Below the pieces are notes generated by a model. The model worked only from the letters and a program-made list of their open reading frames with translations, was not told where the DNA came from and searched no databases. A DNA stretch of 64,000 bases from Actinomycetota bacterium (lineage in GTDB: Bacteria; Actinomycetota; Acidimicrobiia; IMCC26256; JACDBD01): assembly GCA_052390575.1 (NCBI GenBank), contig JBQTGU010000050.1, positions 262 to 64,261 of the forward strand, in the 5' to 3' direction. This document shows, in pieces, positions 35,517-46,405 of this stretch. The translations under genes and the position numbers were made by a program. Position 1 is the first letter of the stretch. Each line of letters opens with the position of its first letter.

Positions 35517-35607
35517 TGCGGAGGAGCGTCCCCGTAGGGGCGGCGCCGGCCAATCTCTTCGAGGATGGCCCGGCGCCGAGCGACGGAGCCATTTGAAGGC
35601 CCGCCCC

Positions 35608-36237
35608 GTGCGGTTCGCGCTCGGCGTCGTCGACGTGGTCTACGCGCCCCGGGCGGTCGAGGAGCGCGCCCGCCTCGCCGCCGAGGACGGCTTCGCCCAC
35701 ATCGACGTCATGGTGGACGTCGATGTAGCGACATTGCCGCTCCCGGTGGGCTGCCCGACCGCCTTCCCCAAGCCCAGGCCGGGATGGTGCTCGACCCCGG
35801 CGCCGCGCGATGGCCCCGGGGTGTGGGAGCGCACGGTCGAGCTGTTCCGCAATGCGCCCGGCGCATTGCTCGAGCCGTGGGCGGGTGCGGTCGTCAACTC
35901 GGCTGAGAAGTGCCGGGCGATCATGGCGGAGGTGCCCGGGCTGCGCCTGCTGGTCGACACCGGTCACGTGGCCGACTGGGGCGGCGACCCACTCGAGCTC
36001 CTGCCCTTCGCCGGCCATGTGCAGCTCCGGCAGGGACGCCCGGGATCGACGCAGGTGCACCCGGCCGACCCGAGTGGGGTCGTCGACTTCGCCGCGGTCG
36101 TCGACCGGCTCGACGCGGTCGACTACGCCGGCGCGCTCAGCGTCGAGTACTTCGACCTGCCCGAGAACGGCTGGCCGCTGGACGATCCCCGCGGTCACGC
36201 CATCGCGCTGGCCGAGCGCGTGCGCGACGTTCTGTAG
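35608..36237 (+). CDS. Sugar phosphate isomerase/epimerase-like TIM-barrel protein
   Basis: GFAHIDV, LLVDTGHV and SVEYFD patterns resemble xylose-isomerase-like TIM barrels. The GTG start was chosen 9 nt after GAAGG. The track ORF start at 35470 overlaps the SDR gene. Confidence 0.5.
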   Translation: MRFALGVVDVVYAPRAVEERARLAAEDGFAHIDVMVDVDVATLPLPVGCPTAFPKPRPGWCSTPAPRDGPGVWERTVELFRNAPGALLEPWAGAVVNSAEKCRAIMAEVPGLRLLVDTGHVADWGGDPLELLPFAGHVQLRQGRPGSTQVHPADPSGVVDFAAVVDRLDAVDYAGALSVEYFDLPENGWPLDDPRGHAIALAERVRDVL

Positions 36238-36249
36238 TGCGCTGATCTC

Positions 36250-37248
36250 CTACGGGGGACCGAGTCCCGGCGCGTTGCCGAGGTGCACCGACGCGACCGT
36301 GCCGGCACGGGGCCGGCCGACACCTTCGTCCCCGGCGGCGAAGGATGCGTACGCCGCCTTGGTCCCGCCGTCATAGGAGTAGAAGAAGCTCAATCCGCCG
36401 ACACCGGTGCGCCCGGAGCCTTCGGCGAGCCACGGGCCACCCGGGTTCGAGCTGCACGGGCCGAGCGGCGTTCCACAGCGCGCCAGGCCGGTCGAGTAGG
36501 ACGGCGTCCACCAGTCACCGGCGGAGTAGGCGAGCAGATAGGTGTTGGTGGTCCAGTCGTAGGTCATCGACGGGTTCTCGATGAAGCGTCCTTCCCAGGC
36601 GTGGCTCTTGCCCAGCACCGGGGATGGCGGACCAGCCGGGTTCGAGTTGGCGTCGAGCGGCATCACGTAGATCGGGGTCTCGGTGTCGGCGAAGGCCATG
36701 TGCAGGTACCACTGGCCGTCGGGGCCCAGGAACAGCCCGGGGTCGAGCGCGCCGCGGTGGCCGTCGAGCCCGCAGCTGAACGGCGCGGCTTCGGGAACGT
36801 AGGGGCCGTCAGGAGCCGAGGAGAACGCTCGCCCGATGCATTGGCGATTCGGTGAGCCGTAGGGAGCCGAGAAGAACATGACGAACCCTGATGCGAACAG
36901 CCCGGCGGTGGGGGCCCAGAACGTGTCGTCGAACGCCCACGCCGGGCGCTGCGGCATCCCCTCCTTGGTGATCCCGATCCACGGAAAGAAGGAGTAGGTC
37001 TGACCGAGTGAGCTCACCGGTGTTATGGGAGCGCGGGCGGAGCCGTTCGACCCGAAGACGTAGTACAGGCCGCCGTGCGGCATCACGAACGGGTCGGCGA
37101 CCAGCGGCCACTGCGGCGGGGCAGCCGCGTGCCGGTTGATGAGGCCGAGCTTGGGCGCCACGCTCCTGCAGGCGGAGAAGAGCAGCGCGCCGACGCACAG
37201 CAGGACGACTGCTACGAAGCGAGTGCGCCGGGACGCCTTGCCGTTCAC
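36250..37248 (-). CDS. Secreted or lipoprotein beta-propeller protein, glycoside hydrolase family 43-like
   Basis: N-terminal TM/signal with LLFSAC. ADPFVMPHGGLYYVFGS, RFIENPS and LAYSAGDW resemble GH43 blades. The start is the GTG at Val148 of the track ORF. Confidence 0.55.
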   Translation of the reverse strand: MNGKASRRTRFVAVVLLCVGALLFSACRSVAPKLGLINRHAAAPPQWPLVADPFVMPHGGLYYVFGSNGSARAPITPVSSLGQTYSFFPWIGITKEGMPQRPAWAFDDTFWAPTAGLFASGFVMFFSAPYGSPNRQCIGRAFSSAPDGPYVPEAAPFSCGLDGHRGALDPGLFLGPDGQWYLHMAFADTETPIYVMPLDANSNPAGPPSPVLGKSHAWEGRFIENPSMTYDWTTNTYLLAYSAGDWWTPSYSTGLARCGTPLGPCSSNPGGPWLAEGSGRTGVGGLSFFYSYDGGTKAAYASFAAGDEGVGRPRAGTVASVHLGNAPGLGPP

Positions 37249-37253
37249 CGTCG

Positions 37254-38171
37254 CTACCGGTCGGCGGGCCACGGGGTGAGCGGCAGTCCCGGCGTCGGGA
37301 GGCCCTCCCACGCGACGACGCGGCCGGGCACGGCGTCGGTCGCGAACAATGTGCGGTTGTCGGCGCCGCCGAAGCAACAGTTGGTGGTGACCCCGTCGCC
37401 CTCGATGGTGAGGAAGTCGACCTCCTTGCCGTCGGGCGAGAGCACCCGGACGCCGTGGTCGACGGTGGCGGCGACGTAGAAGTTGCCGTCGGCGTCGAGG
37501 CAGAAGCCGTCGCCGCCGCCCGCGCCCAGCTTCTCGACGACCCATTCCTTCTCGCCGTTCGGGAGCAGCCGCTGGAGCCCGCGGCCTTCCACCACCACGA
37601 GGTTGCGGTCGCGGTCGAGCGTGATCCCGTTGCAGTAGGCGAACTGCCCCGCGATCACCTTCACGTTGCCGTCGGTCTCGTACGCCCACACCCGGCCGAG
37701 GGGCTGCTCCGGCGGCGGGTAGGGGGGCGGGTCGGTGAAGTACACGGTCCCATCCGGCGCGACCACGAGGTCGTTCGGAGCCTGGAACCCCACGTCGGCG
37801 AGGTACGAGACCGACGAGTGGTGCTCGCGCTGGGGCTCATCGGTCTTGGTATCGGCGGCTGGTTCCACGAGCTGGAGGCCCGGGGTCACCGGCCGGTAGC
37901 GAGAGTCGGTGAAGACGCCCATCTTGGCGAAGTCGGTGCCGCCGTTCTGGGTGACCACGAAGGTGCCGCCGGTGCCGAGGGCGGCGCCGTTGGGACCGCC
38001 GGCGGTGTCGGCGAGCTCCTCGAAGCGCTGCTCCTCCGGGAAGACGCGGAAGAGCTTGCCGTCGCAGACGCTCGTGACGACCAGCGTCCCGACGCCGACC
38101 GACGACTCGGGTGGGCACCACACCGGCCCCTCGCCGAACCGGATGCCACCGACCACCACTTCGGCCTGCAT
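37254..38171 (-). CDS. SMP-30/gluconolactonase/LRE family protein
   Basis: GEGPVW, NDLVVAPDGTVYFTD, YCNGI and DGFCLDADGNFYVA propeller motifs. The start is the internal ATG (MQAEVVVGG). Confidence 0.8.
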   Translation of the reverse strand: MQAEVVVGGIRFGEGPVWCPPESSVGVGTLVVTSVCDGKLFRVFPEEQRFEELADTAGGPNGAALGTGGTFVVTQNGGTDFAKMGVFTDSRYRPVTPGLQLVEPAADTKTDEPQREHHSSVSYLADVGFQAPNDLVVAPDGTVYFTDPPPYPPPEQPLGRVWAYETDGNVKVIAGQFAYCNGITLDRDRNLVVVEGRGLQRLLPNGEKEWVVEKLGAGGGDGFCLDADGNFYVAATVDHGVRVLSPDGKEVDFLTIEGDGVTTNCCFGGADNRTLFATDAVPGRVVAWEGLPTPGLPLTPWPADR

Positions 38172-38216
38172 GGCGGAAGTCTCGCGTACGCTCCCGCACG
38201 AAAGGAGGTGTCGCGT

Positions 38217-38756
38217 ATGGCACGCATCCTGGTGCTCGACCCGACCGCAGCGCCGCCCGAGGTCGACCCCGATCCCGGTCCCGACGCCGGCAATCTCGCC
38301 GGTCACACCGTAGGCATCCGCTACGACACCGCGTGGAAGTCGTTCGACTGGGTGATCGACGAGTGGATCCCTCGGCTGCGCGACGCGGGCGCCGACGTGC
38401 GCCGATGGTGCGCGGGCAACCGGATCGGCGACGAAGGCGAGCGCACCCGGGCCGAGCTCGAGTCGTTCGCCACCGACGTCGACATCGCCGTCGTCGGGCT
38501 GGGCAACTGAGGCTCCTGCACCTCCTGGAGCGTCCACGACACGGTCGCGGCCGCGAGCAGGGGGAAGGCGGCGGTCGTCGTCGTGACAGCGGAGTTCGAG
38601 CAGCTGGCCCACACCGTGGCCGCCAACGCCGGGCGGGCGGGCTTGCGCGTCCTCGCGCTGCCGTACCCGCTCGAGTCGCGCCCCGAGGCCGAGGTGCGGG
38701 AGATCGCGCGCCAGCACTGGTCTCGCCTGCTCGACGCCTTGGGCGCCGAGGCCTGA
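38217..38756 (+). CDS. Candidate selenoprotein with an in-frame TGA (codon 98, 38508-38510) in a U-G-S-C motif; 179 aa if the TGA is read through
   Basis: A strong AAGGAGG SD sequence lies 8 nt upstream of the ATG. The track ORF stops at ...VVGLGN-TGA. The same frame stays open for 81 more codons with high GC3 (GSCTSWSVHDTVAAASRGKAAVVVVTAEFEQL...ALGAEA) until the TGA at 38754. The downstream part has no start codon or RBS of its own. The next gene starts 5 nt later. Confidence 0.6.
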
Positions 38757-38760
38757 TCTC

Positions 38761-39858
38761 GTGACCGAGACCGCGCACACCCACGCCGACCGGGAGGAGT
38801 GCGGGCCCGAGGGCTGTCAGATCGACTGGCTCGCCAGCGAGCGCATCGAGGTCGACGACGACCCGGTGGCGTTCACGAAGCTGGCCACCGACGCCGGTTG
38901 GGGCGACGGTCTGCCCCTCGTCCCGCCGACCGAGGTCCGCGTGCGGGACCACGTCGCCGCGTCGGGGCGCTTTCCCGAGGAGTGCCTGGCCGAGTTGCCG
39001 CCCCGCAACGGGCGGGCGACGGTCGAGAAGGTCGCCATCAACGCGGTCATGACGGGCGCGAACGCCGAGGCCATGCCGCTGCTGTGCGCGGCGGTCGAGG
39101 CGATGGCCGACCCGGTGTTCAACCTGTTCGCGCTCAACACCACGACGTCGTGCGTCGTGCCCGGGCTGTTCGTGAACGGCCCCGCCCGCCACGAGCTGGA
39201 GATCCCCTACGAAGCCGGCTGCTTCGGCGGCGACACCGGGCCCGGTCCTGCGATCGGGCGCGCCACCCGGCTGGTCATGCGCAATGTCGCCGGTCAACGC
39301 GTCGGCGTGAGCTCGAAGAGCGTGTTCGGCCAGCCCGGCCGAATTACCGGCATCGTGGTGGGAGAGTGGGAGGAGCGCTCACCGTGGGCACCGTTGGCGG
39401 AGCGTCGGGGCGTCGCCGGCAACGCCGTCACCGTTCACGGCTGCACCGGCACCATCGACGTGGCCGACATCGTCGCCGACAACGGCGTCGACCTGCTCGA
39501 GGTGATCGGCAAATCGCTGGCGTTCCCCGGCACCAACGCGTTCATCGGCTCGCACCACGGCGCCGAGATCCTCGTCGCCCTCGCGCCGCCGTGGGCCGAG
39601 CTCATCGCGGCGCCGTACCCGGCGATCGAAGACGTCCAGGAACGGCTGTGGGCGCACGCCGCCCTCCCGGTCGCGTGGTGGCCCGAGCCCCACCGGCGCA
39701 AGGCGGAGGAGAACGGCCGCGTCGACGGCGACGGGATGGTGCACCTGGTCGAGGGCCCCGACCACATGGTCGTGATGGTCTGCGGCGGGCTGGGCAACCT
39801 CCATGCCCTCGCCCTGCACAGCTTCGGCCCTACCCGCGCGGTGACCCGGCCCTTCTAG
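38761..39858 (+). CDS. Conserved-looking hypothetical protein, translationally coupled to the candidate selenoprotein
   Basis: 365 aa with clean GC3 bias; GWGDGLPLVPPT and AINAVMTGA motifs. I cannot assign a family. Confidence 0.65.
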   Translation: MTETAHTHADREECGPEGCQIDWLASERIEVDDDPVAFTKLATDAGWGDGLPLVPPTEVRVRDHVAASGRFPEECLAELPPRNGRATVEKVAINAVMTGANAEAMPLLCAAVEAMADPVFNLFALNTTTSCVVPGLFVNGPARHELEIPYEAGCFGGDTGPGPAIGRATRLVMRNVAGQRVGVSSKSVFGQPGRITGIVVGEWEERSPWAPLAERRGVAGNAVTVHGCTGTIDVADIVADNGVDLLEVIGKSLAFPGTNAFIGSHHGAEILVALAPPWAELIAAPYPAIEDVQERLWAHAALPVAWWPEPHRRKAEENGRVDGDGMVHLVEGPDHMVVMVCGGLGNLHALALHSFGPTRAVTRPF

Positions 39859-39859
39859 C

Positions 39860-40924
39860 GTGAGCGACCCCGGCGTAGTCGTCGTCGGTACCGGGTTCGG
39901 CGCGCGCGTCCACGTGCCCGCGTTGCGCGCCGCCGGGCTCACGGTGAATGCGCTCGTCGGCCGCGACGCCGAGCGCACCCACCGTCGGGCTGAGCGCCTG
40001 GGGGTGCCGACGGCGTTCACCTCGCTCGACGAGGCGCTTGCGCACCCGGGCGTCGCGGCGGTCACGATCGCGACCCCGCCGAACAGTCATTGCGAGCTCG
40101 CGGTGACCGCCGTCGGTGCGGGCAAGCACGTCATCTGCGAGAAGCCGTTCGCGCTCGACGCCGACGAGGCGGAAGCGATGTTGCGCGCGGCCGATGCCGC
40201 CGGCGTGACTCACCTTGTAGGTCACGAGTTCCGATGGGCGACCGACCGGGCGGTCGCCGGCCGCGCCATCGCCGAGGGTGCCATCGGCGAGCCCCGCCTG
40301 GCCTCGTTCGTCCAGTGGCTGCCGTTGGTCGCCGATCCCGAGACGAAGATGCCGGCGTGGTGGTTCGACCGCGGCGCCGGCGGCGGATGGCTCGGGGCGT
40401 CCGGCTCCCACGTCGTCGACCAGGTCCGCGCCTGGCTGGGCGAGATTGCCACCGTCAACGCCGCGCTCCCACTCGCATCCGACCGACCCGCCGGCGCGGC
40501 CGAGGACTCGTTCGTCGTGCGGCTCGGCCTGGCCTCGGGTGCCGAGGCCGTGCTCCAGCAGACCGCAGGAGCATGGGGACCGTCGGTGGGCGTGACCCGT
40601 GTCGCCGGGACGCGCGGGACGGTGTGGCTCGAGGACGGCGCCGCCTGGGTCGCCGACGCGTCCGGGACGCGACCGCTGCCGGTGCCGGCGGATCTCCAGC
40701 TGCCCCCGCCTCCCGTGATCAGCGACGATGCCCGTCACCGGTTCACCCACCTCGAGCTCGGCCCGTACACGCGGCTGTGCGAGGCGCTGCGCGCCGGCGT
40801 CGCCCGTCGCCCGCTGCCTACCGCCGTGCCCCTGCCGACGTTCGTCGACGGCGTCGGGTGCATGCGCGTGCTCGACGCCATTCGGGCGTCGGCGGCAGGC
40901 GGCGGCGAGACGGTGCGGCCCTGA
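39860..40924 (+). CDS. Gfo/Idh/MocA family oxidoreductase
   Basis: N-terminal Rossmann motif VVVVGTGFGARVHVPAL and the EKP motif (ICEKPFAL). Confidence 0.85.
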   Translation: MSDPGVVVVGTGFGARVHVPALRAAGLTVNALVGRDAERTHRRAERLGVPTAFTSLDEALAHPGVAAVTIATPPNSHCELAVTAVGAGKHVICEKPFALDADEAEAMLRAADAAGVTHLVGHEFRWATDRAVAGRAIAEGAIGEPRLASFVQWLPLVADPETKMPAWWFDRGAGGGWLGASGSHVVDQVRAWLGEIATVNAALPLASDRPAGAAEDSFVVRLGLASGAEAVLQQTAGAWGPSVGVTRVAGTRGTVWLEDGAAWVADASGTRPLPVPADLQLPPPPVISDDARHRFTHLELGPYTRLCEALRAGVARRPLPTAVPLPTFVDGVGCMRVLDAIRASAAGGGETVRP

Positions 40925-40925
40925 C

Positions 40926-41531
40926 CTACCAGGCCGAGCCGTAGCGGTCGCGGTGGGCGTGCTCGGCCACGGGCTCACGGCGGGGCGGCCCCAGCGGTCG
41001 CGCCGGCCATCCGAGTGGAACGACCGCGACCGGCTCGACGTGCTCGGGAAGCCCGACGACCGCGCGCAGATCGGCGGCGAGCGCGGCCGTCAGCGTCGTG
41101 AGGGCCGAGCCCAGCCCGACGGCGTTGGCGGCCAGGAGCAGGTTCTGTAATGCCGGGAACGTCGACGACGCCACCGTCGCCGGGTGGCAGCGCGTCGTGT
41201 CGGCGCCCACGACGACCACGACTGGCGCGGCGCTGACGCCACCGGTTGCGCCCTGCTCGACGTCGGCGAACAGCTTCGGGGCGAGGCGCCCCTCCGAGTG
41301 GGCCCGCCCGCCTTCTTCCCACAGCCGGCGGGTGAGGGCGCCGATGCGCTCGCGCGTGCCGGCATCGCGCACGACCACGAACACCCACGGCTGGCTGTTC
41401 TCGGCACTGGGCGCGAACGTCGCCGCCTCCAGCACCCGCTCGACGAGGTCGTCGTCGACGGGCTCGTCGCGGAACGACCGGCACGCCCGCTGGGCCCGCA
41501 CGACCTCGAAGAACGAGGGCTCGTCGGTCAC
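40926..41531 (-). CDS. Nitroreductase family protein
   Basis: RACRSFRDEPV and APSAENSQPWVFVVV motifs. The GTG start overlaps the upstream stop codon (GTGA). Confidence 0.85.
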   Translation of the reverse strand: MTDEPSFFEVVRAQRACRSFRDEPVDDDLVERVLEAATFAPSAENSQPWVFVVVRDAGTRERIGALTRRLWEEGGRAHSEGRLAPKLFADVEQGATGGVSAAPVVVVVGADTTRCHPATVASSTFPALQNLLLAANAVGLGSALTTLTAALAADLRAVVGLPEHVEPVAVVPLGWPARPLGPPRREPVAEHAHRDRYGSAW

Positions 41532-42172
41532 GCCGGTCGTTCGCCCAGCCGGCGGAAGCTGTTGACGTACATGATTCGCAGCTCGGGTGTGTTGGCCCAT
41601 CCGTCCCACCCGGGCGTGCCCGGTTCGCCCAGGAGCGTCATGACCAGTGGCGGCATGGCCTGGAACGCGGCCTCGGGGTCCTCGGTGTCCATCTCGTAGA
41701 AGTGCATGAAGCGGGGGTCGCCGCCGCTGACGTTCTCGTAGGGCGTGATCATCGAGAACCCGGGCACGCCCACTTCGGCGATGTGGCGGATGTGCACGAA
41801 GTCGGCCCAGTCGCGGAGGGCCTGCGCCTGATTCGCCTCCCGCGGGCTGATGAGCACGAGCGACAGTCCGATGGTCGGCTTGCCGGTGAGCCGACCCTGG
41901 GCCGGACGCGGGTAGCGACGGAAGTGGTGGCCGGTCACCTCGCCCGGGGTATCGGGCGTAGTGAAGTCGTCGCCGACCTCGTACACACCGAGCCGCCCAA
42001 ACTCGGGCAGCTTGCGGGGCAGGTCGTCGCGGTCGCGGTACACGTTCTCCCACCATGTGGCCCGTTCGACGCCGGGCAGCACCAGCACTTCCGGCACCCG
42101 TTCGGCGACGTAGTCGTCGACCGCGCGATCGGTCATCTCCAGGTACAACCCAGGTGTCAGCCGGTCCTCCAC
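41528..42172 (-). CDS. Hypothetical protein
   Basis: 214 aa with good GC3 bias, sitting between the repeat element and the nitroreductase gene. The start is taken as the GTG 9 nt after GAGG; Met39 (42136) is an alternative. Confidence 0.6.
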   Translation of the reverse strand: MEDRLTPGLYLEMTDRAVDDYVAERVPEVLVLPGVERATWWENVYRDRDDLPRKLPEFGRLGVYEVGDDFTTPDTPGEVTGHHFRRYPRPAQGRLTGKPTIGLSLVLISPREANQAQALRDWADFVHIRHIAEVGVPGFSMITPYENVSGGDPRFMHFYEMDTEDPEAAFQAMPPLVMTLLGEPGTPGWDGWANTPELRIMYVNSFRRLGERPA

Positions 42173-42270
42173 CTCTACTGCCTCGCTCGCTGCGGCGCAG
42201 GGTGCCTGCGCCGCGGTCGCTCGCTCCGACGCCAAGTTCGAGCAAGACACATTGATCGTGCCGCTTGCAT
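42173..42270 (-). repeat. Intercistronic conserved element, copy A (~98 nt)
   Basis: Read on the minus strand: ATGCAAGCGGCACGATCAATGTGTCTTGCTCGAACTTGGCGTCGGAGCGAGCGACCGCGG, then the hairpin GGCGCAGG-CAC-CCTGCGCC, then GCAGCGAGCGAGGCAGTAGAG, then the GTG start. The flanks match copy B at 50/60 and 21/24 positions. Confidence 0.75.
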
Positions 42271-42281
42271 GCGCGCGGAGC

Positions 42282-43136
42282 CTACGGCTCGATGCCCAGC
42301 AGGGCGCAGGGGTTGGTGCACGCCATCGTGCGCAGCTCCTTTTCTGAGAGCCCCTCGCCGGCGAGCGTGTCGACGTACGACTGGAAGCCTTCGGCCGGCG
42401 GGACGTTCGCCTTCTGGCCGAAGTCGGTGGCGAGCGTGCAGCGCCCGACCCCGATCGTGCGCGCCGCCGCCGCCATCACCTCCGGCGGCCGGGTGGCCAG
42501 CGCGCCCAGGCACGTCAGGGCACAGAGCTCGATCGTGGCCCCGAGGTCGGCCAGCTCCACGCACTGGTCGACCGAGAGGTTCGGGCCCGCCAGCTCCTCG
42601 AGTGCGTGGGTCACGAGCGTTCGGCCGCGCTTACCGAACTCTTGTGTGACCGCGAGGTGCTCCTCCCACGTGACGTGGCCGGTGGCGAGTATCGCGCCGA
42701 ACTCCTCGACCAGATCGAGGACCTCGCGGGTCTCCGGAAGCAGCGCACCGGCGTCGTCGGTCACCGAGAGGCCGGGGCCGGGGATGCCGAGCTGGGCGCC
42801 GACCCCGTTGAGCTGGTCCTGCCGGCTCGTGAGCGTCGGCAACCACACGATCTTGGCGCCGAGGCGCAGCGCGGTCTCCACCGCGGCGGGGTTGACGCCC
42901 CCCACTTCCCGGTCGCAACAGATGCCACCGAACACACGGACGCCATGGACGACCCGGTCGACGATCGCGGCCAGCGCAGGAGTGGGGTAGTCGTGCGACT
43001 TGAGCACGACGGCTGCATGGCCGGCCTCGGCCGCGTCGCGCGCCGCTTCGAGCGCGTCGACCGAGCGCTCGCGGTGGGCGTCGGGGCCGAAGTGGCAGTG
43101 CAGGTCGGCCGCGCCGCGCAGATCGATGGTGCCCAT
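42282..43136 (-). CDS. Metal-dependent hydrolase, amidohydrolase/PHP-like
   Basis: N-terminus MGTIDLRGAADLHCHFGPD (DxHxH metal motif), then ATGHV and a late ATDFGQ motif. The start is Met32 of the track ORF. Confidence 0.65.
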   Translation of the reverse strand: MGTIDLRGAADLHCHFGPDAHRERSVDALEAARDAAEAGHAAVVLKSHDYPTPALAAIVDRVVHGVRVFGGICCDREVGGVNPAAVETALRLGAKIVWLPTLTSRQDQLNGVGAQLGIPGPGLSVTDDAGALLPETREVLDLVEEFGAILATGHVTWEEHLAVTQEFGKRGRTLVTHALEELAGPNLSVDQCVELADLGATIELCALTCLGALATRPPEVMAAAARTIGVGRCTLATDFGQKANVPPAEGFQSYVDTLAGEGLSEKELRTMACTNPCALLGIEP

Positions 43137-43249
43137 CACTATTGCCTCGCTCGCTGCGGGCCGGGCCAGCCAGAAAGGGATTGGCCGGCCCGCGACCGCT
43201 CGCTCGGACGCCAAGTTCGAGGAATGCACATCGGCCGTGCCGGTTGCAT
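43137..43249 (-). repeat. Intercistronic conserved element, copy B (~113 nt)
   Basis: Read on the minus strand: ATGCAACCGGCACGGCCGATGTGCATTCCTCGAACTTGGCGTCCGAGCGAGCGGTCGCGG, then the hairpin GGGCCGGCCA-N13-TGGCCCGGCCC, then GCAGCGAGCGAGGCAATAGTG, then the ATG start. It begins inside the dodecin stop codon. Confidence 0.75.
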
Positions 43250-43464
43250 CAGTCGTCGAGGCGGAAGCCGATTTTCATCCCGACCTGGAAGTGACCGACC
43301 TCACCATCCTTGATCCAGCCCCGGATCTCGGTCACCTCGAACCAGTCGAGGTTGCGCAGCGTCTGGCCGGCGCGCGACACGCCGTTGCGCACCGCATCCT
43401 GGATGCTGGCCTCCGACGTTCCCACGACCTCGGTGACCCGGTATGTGTGCGGAGACTCGGTCAT
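43249..43464 (-). CDS. Dodecin family flavin-binding protein
   Basis: 71 aa. YRVTEVVGTSEASIQDAVRNGVSRA...WFEV pattern typical of dodecins. Confidence 0.85.
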   Translation of the reverse strand: MTESPHTYRVTEVVGTSEASIQDAVRNGVSRAGQTLRNLDWFEVTEIRGWIKDGEVGHFQVGMKIGFRLDD

Positions 43465-43484
43465 CGATCCTCCTCGCTCGGGTT

Positions 43485-43519
43485 CGTCACGCTAATGCGC
43501 GACCACCGATAACGTGACG
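43485..43519. promoter_or_regulatory. Perfect 7-bp inverted repeat with a 21-nt spacer in the dodecin / acyl-CoA synthetase divergent region
   Basis: CGTCACG (43485-43491) and CGTGACG (43513-43519). It lies between the divergent start codons at 43464 and 43514/43523. Confidence 0.35.
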
Positions 43520-45238
43520 GGCATGTCAGCAAACCGGGTGCGGAGTGCGCCGGCGCCGGGACAGGCGCCGATGCCGGCGGCGAACGCCGCTGCGCTCCTG
43601 CGTCGGAACGCGACCGATCCCAACATTCGCGATCGTCCGGCGGTGAAGTTCGACGACGACGTGTGGACCCACGCCGAGTACGTCGCCGAGTCGACCCGCT
43701 GGGCCAACCTGTTCCTCACCCGCAAGCCGGCCGACCGCGCCCTGCACGTGGGGGTGCTGCTCGACAACGTCCCCGAGTACCTCTTCGCCCTCGGCGGCGC
43801 CGCCCTGTCGGGATCGGCGGTGGTTGGGCTCAACCACACCCGGAGGGGCGAGCATCTCCTCCGCGACATCAAGCACACCCATGTCGGCCTGATCGTCACC
43901 GCACCCGGCCACGAGGCGCTACTCGAGCCCATCGCCGACCGGCTCCCGCCCGTCCTCGTCGTGGGACCTGGCCTCGCCGGCGCGCTCGACGAACAGTCGC
44001 GCGGCGACCCCGGCCTCGAGCCCGAGCCCGACACGGTCTGGGGGCTCATCTTCACGTCGGGCACATCCGACGCGCCCAAGGCGGTGATCTGCACCCAGCG
44101 CCGGTTCATGGTCACCGGCAACCGCATGGGCATCATCATGGGCGTCGAGCCCCACGACGTCGGTTACGTGTGCATGCCGCTGTTCCACTCGAACGCCCTC
44201 ATGGTCGGGTGGGCACCCTCGATCGTCTACGGCGCGGCGGTCGGGCTCGGCCGGCGTTTCAGCGCCTCGCGGTGGCTGGGCGACGTCCGCCGCTACGGTG
44301 CGACCTGGTTCAACTACACCGGCAAGCCTCTCGCCTATCTGCTCGCGACTCCGGAGCAACCCGACGACGCCGACAACCCCCTCCGGGTCGCGTTCGGCAA
44401 CGAAGGCTCACCCGAGATCGTCGACGCGTTCGCCCGCCGATTCGACGTCGAGGTCATCGACGCCTACGGCGCCACCGAGGGGGGCGTGGCCGTCAACCGC
44501 GACGCCGAGGAACGGCCGGGCGCGCTGGGCCAGGCCGACACCGCGGTCAAGGTCGTCGACGAGGACGGCAACGAGCTGCCGCCGGCGCGCATCGATCCCG
44601 CGACCGGGCGGGTGCTCAACGCCGACGAGTGCGTCGGGGAGATCGTCAACACCGCCGGGGTCGGGCCGTTCGACGGCTACTACAACAATCCCGAGGCGAA
44701 CGAGCGCACCACCCGGTTCGGCTGGTACTGGACCGGCGACCTCGGCTATCTCGACGACGACCGCTACCTCTACTTCGCCGGGCGCACCGCCGACTGGATC
44801 CGGGTCGACGGCGAGAACTTCCTCGCGGCACCGATCGAGGCTGCGCTCGCCCGCCACCCCGACGTGGTGCTCGCGGCTGCCTACGGAGTCCCCGACGACG
44901 AGGCCGGCGACCAGGTGATGGCGGGGCTCGTGCTGCGGGACGGCAGCGCGTTCGACCCGGCCGGCTTCGCCCGCTGGCTCGACGAGCAACCCGACGTCGG
45001 CCCGAAGTGGCGGCCCCGCTACGTGCGGGTCCTGCGCGACCCGCCCACCACCGGCACCAACAAGATCGTGAAGCGGGCGCTCGTGCACCAGAAGTGGCGG
45101 GCGGATCTCGCCGGGGGCGATCCCGTCTTCGTCCGTCTCCGTGGCGACGACGACTACCGATTGTTCAGCGAAGACGACGAGCGGGCGCTGCACGACTCGT
45201 TCGTGCGCAACCAGCGCGAACGGTTCTGGGATCTCTAA
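43514..45238 (+). CDS. Acyl-CoA synthetase (AMP-forming, FadD-like)
   Basis: FTSGTSDAPKAV AMP-binding motif, YGATEGG, WYWTGDLG, and a C-terminal GTNKIVKR. The ATG at 43523 is an alternative start. Confidence 0.9.
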   Translation: MTGMSANRVRSAPAPGQAPMPAANAAALLRRNATDPNIRDRPAVKFDDDVWTHAEYVAESTRWANLFLTRKPADRALHVGVLLDNVPEYLFALGGAALSGSAVVGLNHTRRGEHLLRDIKHTHVGLIVTAPGHEALLEPIADRLPPVLVVGPGLAGALDEQSRGDPGLEPEPDTVWGLIFTSGTSDAPKAVICTQRRFMVTGNRMGIIMGVEPHDVGYVCMPLFHSNALMVGWAPSIVYGAAVGLGRRFSASRWLGDVRRYGATWFNYTGKPLAYLLATPEQPDDADNPLRVAFGNEGSPEIVDAFARRFDVEVIDAYGATEGGVAVNRDAEERPGALGQADTAVKVVDEDGNELPPARIDPATGRVLNADECVGEIVNTAGVGPFDGYYNNPEANERTTRFGWYWTGDLGYLDDDRYLYFAGRTADWIRVDGENFLAAPIEAALARHPDVVLAAAYGVPDDEAGDQVMAGLVLRDGSAFDPAGFARWLDEQPDVGPKWRPRYVRVLRDPPTTGTNKIVKRALVHQKWRADLAGGDPVFVRLRGDDDYRLFSEDDERALHDSFVRNQRERFWDL

Positions 45239-45241
45239 ACC

Positions 45242-46405
45242 GTGGACCTGAGCTTCACCGAAGAGGAGCAGGCGTTCGCGGAGGAGGTGCGCGCCTGGCT
45301 CGCCGACAACCTCGAGCTGCCGCCGCCGTTCGGCTCGCTCGACGAGGAGATCGAATGGGGCCGGGCGTGGCAGGCGAAGCTGGCCGCGGACCGCTGGGTG
45401 GGCATCCACTGGCCGGCCGAGTACGGCGGCCGGGGCGCGTCGCCGGTGCAGGTGGCGATCTTCAACATGGAGTACGCCCGCTCGCGTGCGCTCCAGCCGG
45501 TCAACCGCGTGGGCATCAACCTGGCGGGGCCGACCCTGCTGGCGCACGGCACCGAGGCGCAGAAGCAGCGGTGGCTCCCGGCGATCCTCGACGCCGGGGA
45601 GATCTGGTGCCAGCTGTTCAGCGAGCCCGGCGCCGGCTCCGACCTGGCCGCGCTGGCCACCCGGGCGGTGCCGGCCGAGGGCGGGTGGCTGCTGTCGGGC
45701 CAGAAGGTGTGGACGAGCTACGCCCGTCAGGCCCGCTGGGGCATCTGCCTGGCGCGCACCGACGCCGATGCACCCAAGCACCGTGGCATCTCGTACCTCG
45801 TCGTCGACGTGGAGGCACGGGGCATCGACGTGCGTCCGTTGGTGCAGATCACGGGCGAGGCCGAGTTCAACGAGGTGTTCCTCGACGAGGTGTTCGTACC
45901 CGAGGACCACCTCGTCGGCGAGCTCAACCAGGGCTGGGCCGTCGCCAACACCACGCTGGCGCACGAGCGCGGCACCGCCTTCCCCTTCAAGGAGCAGGTC
46001 GTGCACGAGGTCTACCTCGACGAGCTCTACGCGCTGGCGGCCGAGCGCGGAGTGCTCGACGATCCCGAGGCGTCCGATGCGCTCGCGCAGGCGTTCGTGG
46101 AGCTGCGGGTGCTCCGGTTGCACAACTGGCGCACGTTGTCGCGTCTCGCCGAAGGGATCGAGCCCGGTCCGGAGTCGAGTTGGGTGAAGCTGGCCTGGAC
46201 CGACATGACCCAGCACCTGTCGGAGAGCGCGCTGGGCGTGCTCGGCGACGCCGCGCCGCTGTGGGCGGGCGCGGCCGAGAACCCTGCCGACGGGAAGTGG
46301 CAGCGCCAGTGGCTGTGGAGCAAGGCGGCGTCGATCGCCGGCGGGACGTCCGAGGTCCAGCGCACGATCATCGGCGAGCGGCTGCTCGGTTTGCCTCGGG
46401 GATAG
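45242..46405 (+). CDS. Acyl-CoA dehydrogenase
   Basis: EPGAGSDLA and GGTSEVQRTIIGERLLGLPR motifs; 387 aa. Confidence 0.9.
   Translation: MDLSFTEEEQAFAEEVRAWLADNLELPPPFGSLDEEIEWGRAWQAKLAADRWVGIHWPAEYGGRGASPVQVAIFNMEYARSRALQPVNRVGINLAGPTLLAHGTEAQKQRWLPAILDAGEIWCQLFSEPGAGSDLAALATRAVPAEGGWLLSGQKVWTSYARQARWGICLARTDADAPKHRGISYLVVDVEARGIDVRPLVQITGEAEFNEVFLDEVFVPEDHLVGELNQGWAVANTTLAHERGTAFPFKEQVVHEVYLDELYALAAERGVLDDPEASDALAQAFVELRVLRLHNWRTLSRLAEGIEPGPESSWVKLAWTDMTQHLSESALGVLGDAAPLWAGAAENPADGKWQRQWLWSKAASIAGGTSEVQRTIIGERLLGLPRG

Follow-up and report, generated by a model that had tools for sequence, protein, structure and literature searches.

The UGSC selenoprotein and a 365-residue partner, P365, form a conserved pair that is fused in many bacteria

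In a 64,000-nucleotide stretch of DNA from an Actinomycetota bacterium (the whole of which is called the window below), three genes on one strand encode a small selenoprotein of the UGSC family, a protein of 365 amino acids abbreviated here as P365, and an NAD(P)-dependent oxidoreductase of the Gfo/Idh/MocA type (GFO). A first reading of the window, made from its letters alone and referred to as the sequence-only reading, proposed that the three together could form an undescribed redox module. Our analysis puts the weight on the first two: UGSC and P365 are a strongly conserved functional unit, encoded as separate proteins here and as a fused polypeptide in many bacteria. The features of the locus on which the argument depends are these.

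38217..38756, plus strand: UGSC-family selenoprotein gene; 179 codons, motif GLGN-U-GSC-TSW, stop codon at 38754-38756.
38508..38510, plus strand: in-frame TGA read as selenocysteine (Sec), residue 98, the frame being open and conserved on either side (…VVGLGN-U-GSCTSWSVHD…).
38511..38575, plus strand: structured region 3′ of the UGA, like a Sec insertion sequence (SECIS), seen from arm covariation and the family folding z-score.
38761..39858, plus strand: P365 gene; GTG start, stop codon at 39856-39858, 365 aa.
38800..38817, plus strand: N-terminal Cys14-x4-Cys19 motif (CGPEGC) of P365, conserved in close homologues and situated on an arm modeled with low confidence.
39860..40924, plus strand: GFO gene; GTG start, 354 aa, domains PF01408, PF22725 and PF02894.

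The co-directional arrangement, with gaps of 4 and 1 nt, is confirmed by the list of open reading frames (ORFs) and by the sequence itself. The UGSC gene begins at the ATG at 38217, with a Shine-Dalgarno sequence (AAGGAGG) 7 nt to its 5′ side; 4 nt separate it from P365, whose start has GAGG 11 nt upstream, and a single nucleotide lies between P365 and GFO. In the window, UGSC and P365 would be separate subunits from translationally coupled genes. A scan between the three genes showed neither a sigma-70-like promoter nor an intrinsic terminator; it is weakly informative at the 72% G+C of the DNA around the operon. The nearest relatives of the locus are Acidimicrobiia metagenome-assembled genomes (MAGs), with 91% protein identity for one of them (L001).

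The upstream gene belongs to the Pfam family PF24696 (“UGSC”), matched over residues 6-176 of 179 with 110.8 bits (cut-off 25; E=1e-31). It falls below the NCBIfam equivalog NF041046 (UGSC_fam), with 72.9 bits against a cut-off of 125 and an alignment confined to the C-terminal half; hence, though within the Pfam family, the window protein belongs to a different subfamily from the seed of that model. The TGA is present in all 78 related loci that span the site, and its context, GLGN-TGA-GSC, is invariant. Downstream of the UGA, the arm at +13 to +19 covaries with a 3′ arm at about +50 to +57 (for example CCUCC/GGAGG, CCGCC/GGCGG, CCUCG/CGAGG, and CCGCG/CGCGG), such that at least 6 of the 7 pairs form in 64% of sequences, a level that mismatched controls attain in 28%. 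In 90 members of the family, the 63 nt 3′ of the UGA give a mean folding z-score of -1.39, with 34% of members below -2, compared with means of about -0.2, and 7-9% below -2, for two control regions of the same genes. The window hairpin taken singly is not significant (z=-0.57), and RNAalifold found no consensus SECIS structure on 22 codon-locked sequences, in which the 3′ arm changes register.

UGSC has been named as a selenoprotein family since 2007-2008, as the “UGSC-containing protein” of Zhang and Gladyshev, and has been counted since then among the most abundant selenoprotein families of ocean and freshwater metagenomes (PMC1976440, PMC2398784). Global Ocean Sampling (GOS) data held 255 Sec forms and 21 Cys forms (PMC2398784). 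In that literature, UGSC is a stand-alone protein of unknown function with a “likely Trx-like fold” (PMC1976440, PMC2398784), and the 2008 paper records a “UGSC/Unknown_1” fusion (PMC2398784). To that extent, the module is not wholly undescribed. The “Unknown_1” domain probably corresponds to P365, because P365 and a NifU-like domain are the sole recognizable domains seen fused to UGSC in our surveys.

P365 is certainly a coding gene, since close homologues are abundant: identities reach 93%, and the top 120 matches are all at least 75% identical. On this point the sequence-only reading was right, as it was in quoting the motifs GWGDGLPLVPPT (residues 46-57) and AINAVMTGA (92-100) and in being unable to place the protein in any family. 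The window P365 has no match in Pfam, NCBIfam, or the PDB sequences; 64 diverse relatives (31-52% identical) gave no credible Pfam or NCBIfam match, and the P365 profile found nothing below E=0.5 among PDB sequences. The family is nevertheless very large, with more than 2,141 homologues in a database of 5.8 billion proteins, and a hidden Markov model (HMM) run against the representatives of 50%-identity clusters returned 4,604 P365 clusters at E<=1e-3, including 852 at E<=1e-30. Its conserved motifs are DGLP-x-PPT, NAVM-x-G, GRA-x-RL, and an invariant Glu in G/A-E-N/W-E-E. Tandem P365-P365 polypeptides of 637-717 aa also occur (L086 7001-8914, P0188, and P0236), the L086 gene being followed by ABC transporter and sarcosine-oxidase-like genes. 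An NTTTSC motif, with the look of the self-cleavage site of GrdE or PrdA, suggested a pyruvoyl enzyme of the Stickland-reductase kind; this idea was dropped, as the Ser-Cys is kept only in close homologues, to which Cys131 is limited, and the family consensus at this position is Q-x-T-T-x-P.

The link between the two genes was assessed in both directions. The forward test used 80 genome loci, each with a P365 relative of 69-91% identity; their bin labels include Acidimicrobiia/Actinomycetota, Myxococcota, Spirochaetes, delta-proteobacteria, Dormibacterota, and others. UGSC lies upstream of P365 on the same strand in all 80, and it directly adjoins or slightly overlaps P365 in 79; the gap in the last, L021, is 2.1 kb. 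The reverse test began from a degenerate DNA pattern, G-[DN]-UGA-G-S-C-T-[SA]-W, which is free of P365 information and which found 121 sites on metagenome contigs. Eighty-two sites had at least 800 nt of DNA downstream, and 81 of these are true UGSC genes. A P365 HMM match follows on the same strand in 71 of the 81, and P365 is elsewhere in the locus for 5 more, bringing the linked total to about 94%. In these 5 exceptions, P365 is upstream (L161), or follows an inserted membrane-protein gene (L179 and L203), or is on the opposite strand (L105 and L160). The remaining Sec-motif sites without P365 are on truncated or chimeric contigs. One candidate for a fusion of UGSC to some other domain, L185, was discounted, its tail seeming to be antisense or chimeric sequence from the P365 N-terminus. 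In a single UGSC subgroup (L179, L203, and L112), the gene found between UGSC and P365 encodes a polytopic membrane protein of about 920 aa, with the N-terminus MPGTLRLALLATALSGAAALVYE….

The association extends beyond the Sec forms. A protein search with UGSC recovered Cys-type UGSC proteins of 186 aa, and in all 3 of the contexts inspected, including the complete genome of Sphingobium sp. AP49 (CP124576.1; UGSC is PMI04_008835), a P365 homologue overlaps the UGSC stop codon. Since Cys-type systems retain P365, it is not a Sec-insertion factor. Moreover, dozens of proteins of 524-581 aa are fusions in which an N-terminal UGSC domain is followed by a C-terminal P365 domain, and one of them is labeled “UGSC family (seleno)protein” by NCBI. 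Proteins of 410-470 aa that start inside UGSC appear to be Sec-containing fusions cut at the TGA by gene callers. P365 is also found fused, in the 695-aa protein P0250, to a flavoprotein resembling low-molecular-weight thioredoxin reductase (Pyr_redox_2, with a CAVC motif). By sequence comparison, UGSC has in P365 a near-obligate partner, which in other bacteria is its fused second domain, and the pair in the window is a typical member of a system that is defined by sequence and biochemically uncharacterized. Two paralogous Sec-containing fusions were found as divergent genes in L084 and L085 (4302-9239), together with genes for a major facilitator superfamily (MFS) transporter and a FlK/4HBT-type thioesterase; one of the paralogues has the variant motif GVGH-U-STC.

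Structure prediction is consistent with one compact assembly. Modeled alone by AlphaFold2, P365 has a predicted local distance difference test score (pLDDT) of 79 and a predicted template modeling score (pTM) of 0.84, with residues 1-15 below a pLDDT of 50. A Foldseek comparison of this model with the PDB gave nothing at E<=0.001. Its top 23 matches are class I fumarate hydratases, aligned over about 300-360 columns with E values of about 1e-3, probabilities up to 0.89, and template modeling (TM) scores of about 0.26; weak likeness to the PurM superfamily (SelD, HypE, and ThiL) extends over about 145 residues at probabilities of 0.1-0.54. As modeled, P365 appears to be without a convincing structural relative in the PDB. 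Homology to class I fumarate hydratase was rejected on an hhalign probability of 0.06 against Escherichia coli FumA and the lack of a conserved three-Cys site. Cyanuric acid hydrolase and PurM-like identities were set aside as low-probability Foldseek matches; amidase and amidohydrolase genes had been noted nearby.

A natural fusion, P0223, modeled by AlphaFold2 with 43 aligned fusions, reached a pLDDT of 88.7 and a pTM of 0.91 despite a disordered linker, and a pTM of this order implies a fixed, confidently predicted arrangement of the UGSC and P365 domains with a defined interface. Three loops are poorly predicted in P365 alone (residues 127-130 and 181-191, with pLDDT below 50, and the block 151-160, with a mean of 59), and their equivalents in the fusion model have pLDDT values of about 71-88. 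This is weak and indirect support, from two models whose alignments differ, for placing three conserved P365 loops at the UGSC interface. The Foldseek matches of the fusion fall on its UGSC domain and are all flavodoxin-like α/β sandwiches, the neighbors being lumazine synthase, flavodoxin, PurE, MccF, and a glutamine-amidotransferase domain; none of the top 50 is a thioredoxin-fold protein. The Sec/Cys of the P0223 UGSC domain comes after strand 90-96, at the start of helix 99-114. UGSC is therefore best described as a predicted flavodoxin-like α/β domain, on the model of a fused relative rather than of the window protein, and the published Trx-like fold finds no support in that model.

The position of the reactive residue raises one rival explanation. 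Carriers of the DsrE/TusD type have the same general arrangement, their reactive residue being placed where a strand turns into a helix. UGSC could be such a carrier, with a persulfide or perselenide as its cargo and P365 as the sulfur- or selenium-transferase that receives it and acts on a cofactor or metabolite. The flavodoxin-like α/β model of UGSC would suit this, as would the weak resemblance of part of P365 to SelD, HypE, and ThiL. We nevertheless think it very unlikely, since no DsrE/TusD structure is present in the top 50 Foldseek matches of the fusion model, P365 has no ATP-binding motif and its PurM-type matches are of low probability, and the gene neighborhoods are catabolic or concerned with transport, with no sulfur-relay, tRNA-modification, or cofactor genes.

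The pattern of cysteines bears more directly on mechanism. The Sec/Cys position of UGSC is invariant in every UGSC examined. The Cys at +3 is missing in a large fused subgroup (motif C-F-G-D-C-G-T-S), in which a Cys has been gained at -4. Among 34 P365 clusters at 60% identity, Cys100 (NAVMAG-C) is found in 27 and Cys199 (F-C-x-A-E-N-E) in 23, 5 clusters have neither, and Cys100, Cys154, and Cys199 are each missing from several subfamilies. The window P365 has Ala100 and Val199; its clade and that of Sphingobium are without both Cys100 and Cys199 and bear CGP[ED]GC near the N-terminus, on the low-confidence arm, which is presumably flexible. CGPEGC is invariant in close homologues. The P365 of L091 is without Cys100, Cys199, and the N-terminal motif, and its UGSC bears a NifU-like CQEC domain. 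An N-terminal NifU-like CxxC domain is carried by about one fifth of the top Cys-type UGSC matches. Of the NifU-like domains fused to UGSC or encoded beside it, one scores 29.9 bits against PF01106 (gathering threshold 27) and the others 17-25 bits. The fused domain was seen on Cys-type UGSC proteins of about 270 aa (L091 7001-7819, P0400, and P0417), and a second pair in L091 (12157-14041) has a separate NifU-like protein of 90 aa, in the order NifU-like, P365, UGSC(Sec).

A redox mechanism is favored here mainly because one invariant reactive residue is combined with movable partner cysteines, the pattern seen in methionine sulfoxide reductases (Msr), peroxiredoxins (Prx), and ArsC. The excess of Sec over Cys forms in the GOS data and the thioredoxin-reductase-like fusion P0250 belong to the same redox-type signature. 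That UGSC and P365 constitute one selenol/thiol redox enzyme, with P365 as its catalytic or substrate-binding partner, is a proposition that we put at about an even chance. The analysis shows that the genes are coupled and often fused, what folds the models give them, and how Cys and Sec are conserved; the redox chemistry, the electron route, and the class of substrate are inferred. The selenol of UGSC would be the catalytic nucleophile or redox center, working in a conserved P365 pocket that includes DGLP-x-PPT, NAVM-x-G, GRA-x-RL, and the invariant Glu of G/A-E-N/W-E-E. An oxidized intermediate would be resolved by a nearby Cys whose position depends on the lineage, the candidates being the UGSC +3 Cys, Cys100 or Cys199 of P365, the CGPEGC arm in the window clade, and the NifU-like CxxC domain in other lineages. 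A thioredoxin-type system would afterwards return the site to its reduced state. GFO, or a D-2-hydroxyacid dehydrogenase in sister loci, probably converts the same small metabolite, either ahead of the selenoenzyme reaction or following it, and in the window clade that metabolite is likely to be derived from a sugar, lactone, or hydroxy acid.

The same cysteines could instead be ligands. On this alternative, UGSC-P365 would be a metalloenzyme or Fe-S enzyme, for instance a carboxylate hydro-lyase or isomerase, with an interfacial cluster or metal held by the Sec/Cys-x-x-Cys of UGSC and a Cys pair from P365, from its arm, or from the NifU-like domain, and there would be no selenol/selenenylsulfide cycle. 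The recurrence of about four Cys/Sec residues in alternative arrangements fits this well, as do the NifU-like (PF01106) CxxC domains fused to UGSC or encoded next to it, a weak match of UGSC to the putative metal-binding CGGC domain (E=0.13), the [4Fe-4S] class I fumarate hydratases as the sole consistent Foldseek matches of P365, and the location of some fused members beside aconitase, PrpD, and di-/tricarboxylate transporters. However, the Sec/Cys of UGSC is the one universal position among these; the cysteines of P365 vary, 5 of the 34 clusters having neither Cys100 nor Cys199, and the resemblance to fumarate hydratase is poor both by hhalign (probability 0.06 against FumA) and by fold (TM about 0.26). 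We know of no established case of natural Sec ligation of an Fe-S cluster, and a marked preference for Sec usually goes with redox catalysis. We thus regard the metalloenzyme explanation as unlikely.

Several points weigh against the selenol/thiol redox enzyme as well. The substitution pattern of the cysteines comes from just two or three independent lineages. Four Cys/Sec residues at the presumed interface, together with the NifU-like domains, suit a metal or Fe-S site equally well, and to these are added the weak CGGC match of UGSC and the weak fumarate hydratase likeness of P365. The thioredoxin-reductase-like fusion is a single cluster representative. Contact of the Sec with the conserved P365 residues is a presumption. 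Reviews to 2026 still list the UGSC family as uncharacterized. Finally, the neighborhoods are heterogeneous across the family, such that no single substrate can be inferred.

The third gene of the operon was correctly recognized at the outset as an NAD(P)-dependent Gfo/Idh/MocA oxidoreductase, having the N-terminal NAD(P)-binding Rossmann domain and C-terminal α/β domain of that family, with all three Pfam domains above their gathering scores: PF01408 at 93.2 bits (cut-off 24), PF22725 at 62.2 (27), and PF02894 at 34.6 (22.9). It is a generic member and reached no substrate-specific NCBIfam equivalog, the best scores being 112.9 of the 650 bits required for levoglucosan dehydrogenase and 95.8 of 355 for IolG. 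Seventy-six loci have enough DNA 3′ of P365 for a census of what follows, given here with counts adjusted for split alignments.

GFO directly after P365: about 9-11 of 76 loci.
D-2-hydroxyacid dehydrogenase (2-Hacid_dh, PF02826), then GFO: about 21-23 of 76 loci.
D-2-hydroxyacid dehydrogenase alone: about 13 of 76 loci.
Neither dehydrogenase: the remainder of the 76, including every locus binned as Myxococcota, Spirochaetes, or delta-proteobacteria.

GFO is thus in the operon in about 30-34 of the 76 loci, which are actinobacterial without exception, and it was not found in Sphingobium, Burkholderiales, or the other distant contexts inspected. As a member of the operon in under half of the loci, all of them actinobacterial, GFO is a clade-specific accessory and not a core component. 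These numbers also bear on the proposal of an obligate three-component module, in which GFO would pass electrons from NAD(P)H to the selenoprotein. The single-nucleotide gap between P365 and GFO, the orthologous GFO genes in the operons just counted, and the presence of GFO in an adjoining divergent operon in Dormibacterota L058 are in its favor. Gfo/Idh/MocA (PF01408) enzymes oxidize or reduce the C-OH and C=O groups of sugars or cyclitols, and, to our knowledge, none is known to reduce protein disulfides; moreover, GFO is lacking in over half of the loci, is lacking downstream of P365 in every non-actinobacterial locus, is often displaced by a 2-Hacid_dh gene, and is never fused to UGSC or P365 among the roughly 270 family proteins listed. 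The obligate module must be considered very unlikely. Of the redox trio in the sequence-only reading, what survives is the UGSC-P365 unit, seen in 80 of 80 loci, in about 94% of the reverse sample, and in the fusions; GFO as an integral part does not. The test proposed there, of whether homologues co-occur across genomes, divides in the same way, holding for the U/CGSC protein with P365 and failing for a consistent Gfo/Idh/MocA presence.

Upstream of the operon, the window has three genes that might speak to the substrate.

37254..38171, minus strand: SMP-30/gluconolactonase-like gene, divergent from UGSC (PF08450, E=1.4e-25).
36250..37200, minus strand: GH43-like gene (PF04616, E=2.5e-14).
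35590..36237, plus strand: gene for a xylose-isomerase-like triosephosphate isomerase (TIM) barrel protein, AP_endonuc_2 (PF01261, E=1.7e-11); start codon uncertain.

The Pfam matches confirm the gluconolactonase-like and GH43-like neighbors that had been named from the sequence and taken as hinting at a sugar or lactone substrate; that hint has fared unevenly. A tblastn search for the GH43 gene found it in 0 of the 80 related loci; L004 is an example in which nothing separates the TIM-barrel gene from that of the lactonase. With no counterpart in any of the 80, GH43 has been inserted locally and carries no evidence about substrate; it looks like a recent arrival in a conserved neighborhood. 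In its longer ORF (36250-37689, minus strand), a low-complexity N-terminal extension precedes a lipoprotein-like signal (…LLFSAC…). The lactonase has a tblastn match upstream of UGSC in about 27 of the 80 loci, including the Dormibacterota MAG L058, in which the lactonase, TIM barrel, and GFO genes form together a divergent operon beside the pair. AP_endonuc_2 is, for the window's subfamily, the neighbor that spans the most phyla, occurring near the pair in Acidimicrobiia, Myxococcota (L081 and L064), Sphingobium (L089 and L092), and Dormibacterota (L058). The hint is thus modestly upheld by the SMP-30 and TIM-barrel genes, which recur in Acidimicrobiia and Dormibacterota, the TIM-barrel gene doing so in Myxococcota and Sphingobium also, and is not upheld by GH43. 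A substrate derived from a sugar, lactone, or hydroxy acid is a reasonable but unproven guess for the window subfamily.

For the family as a whole, Pfam scans of 112 ORFs flanking diverse pairs brought out no dominant partner. The types that recur are amidohydrolases, lactonases, solute-binding proteins, FAD oxidoreductases, short-chain dehydrogenases/reductases (SDRs), and MFS transporters, and the fused Burkholderiales members have as neighbors an amidase with TctC genes in some cases, and aconitase and PrpD with a citrate-type symporter in others. UGSC-P365 gives the impression of a versatile scaffold for catabolic enzymes, whose substrates change from one subfamily to the next. In Sphingobium sp. 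AP49, a LysR-flanked operon has, after P365, a gene for a 183-aa protein without a Pfam match (L089 8720-9271), with genes for a thiamine pyrophosphate (TPP)-dependent enzyme and AP_endonuc_2 nearby; taken with the window GFO, this set recalls the iolG, iolE, and iolD families.

Other features of the window neighborhood were recorded. The divergent start codons of the SMP-30 lactonase and UGSC are 45 nt apart (38172-38216), no sigma-70-like hexamers were detected in this interval, and, the intergenic region being so short, the promoters must overlap coding sequence or one another. Pfam also identifies genes for a MaoC-like dehydratase, a nitroreductase, and a DUF6282 protein near the operon. 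On the 3′ side (window 40926-46405; L001-L061), a block of genes keeps its order in many Acidimicrobiia loci. It comprises a nitroreductase (PF00881), an acyl-CoA synthetase, an acyl-CoA dehydrogenase, and minus-strand genes at 41531-43464: a 240-aa protein without a Pfam match (41531-42250), the DUF6282 gene (42285-43229), which is also near the pair in Dormibacterota L058 and in metagenome loci, and a 71-aa ORF (43249-43464) named dodecin-like provisionally.

What follows from this analysis is, first, a recasting of UGSC, from a stand-alone thioredoxin-like protein to what would be the small, flavodoxin-like part of a larger enzyme, whether as a subunit or as a domain; and, second, the recognition of P365 as a family of thousands of sequence clusters that has no Pfam or NCBIfam model. 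The three-component picture is corrected, the dehydrogenase being optional and GH43 incidental. The question of UGSC function is made tractable: the system has two components that meet, in the model, at a defined interface, residues can be put forward for the active site, and the candidate classes of substrate are few; for the window clade, the recurrent lactonase, xylose-isomerase-like TIM barrel, and NAD(P) dehydrogenases narrow the search. Cultured Sphingobium has Cys-type versions, which makes knock-outs, pull-downs, and biochemistry practical. More tentatively, UGSC-P365 might be an unrecognized class of two-component or fused selenoenzyme, with the Sec on a flavodoxin-like domain inside a catalytic subunit of new fold and a chemistry unlike that of known selenoenzymes, for example a reductive or nucleophilic transformation of metabolites derived from lactones or keto acids, or possibly a Sec-ligated Fe-S site; we see this as possible, with the odds on the other side.

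Set beside known systems, the window gene shares the defining U-G-S-C motif of PF24696 and is a clear Pfam member. It differs from the UGSC of the literature in that UGSC is here almost always paired with P365 and that the UGSC domain of a fused relative is modeled as flavodoxin-like. The class I [4Fe-4S] fumarate hydratases (PDB 5L2R, 6UOI, and 7XKY) are the sole consistent structural neighbor of the P365 model, from which they are separated by a TM score of about 0.26, a root-mean-square deviation (RMSD) of about 15 Å, and the absence from P365 of a conserved three-Cys cluster site. There is a likeness in organization to the glycine, sarcosine, betaine, and D-proline reductases (GrdA, GrdB, GrdE, PrdA, and PrdB), which are multi-subunit enzymes pairing a UxxC or CxxU selenoprotein with a bigger subunit that activates the substrate, and which are reduced by thioredoxin and act on small metabolites. 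Unlike these, P365 does not conserve across the family the possible pyruvoyl-precursor Ser-Cys (NTTTSC), the hosts of UGSC-P365 belong mostly to aerobic soil and aquatic lineages, and neither PF07355 (GRDB) nor PF09338 is matched by UGSC at E<=10 or by P365 relatives at E<=1. With Msr, the peroxiredoxins, and ArsC, the pair shares one universal Sec/Cys, natural interchange of Sec and Cys, and a resolving Cys that is placed differently by subfamily, and one fusion hints at coupling to thioredoxin reductase. The analogy is one of logic, with no relation in sequence or fold, and there is a further difference: in UGSC-P365, the reactive residue and the presumed substrate pocket are on separate subunits or domains.

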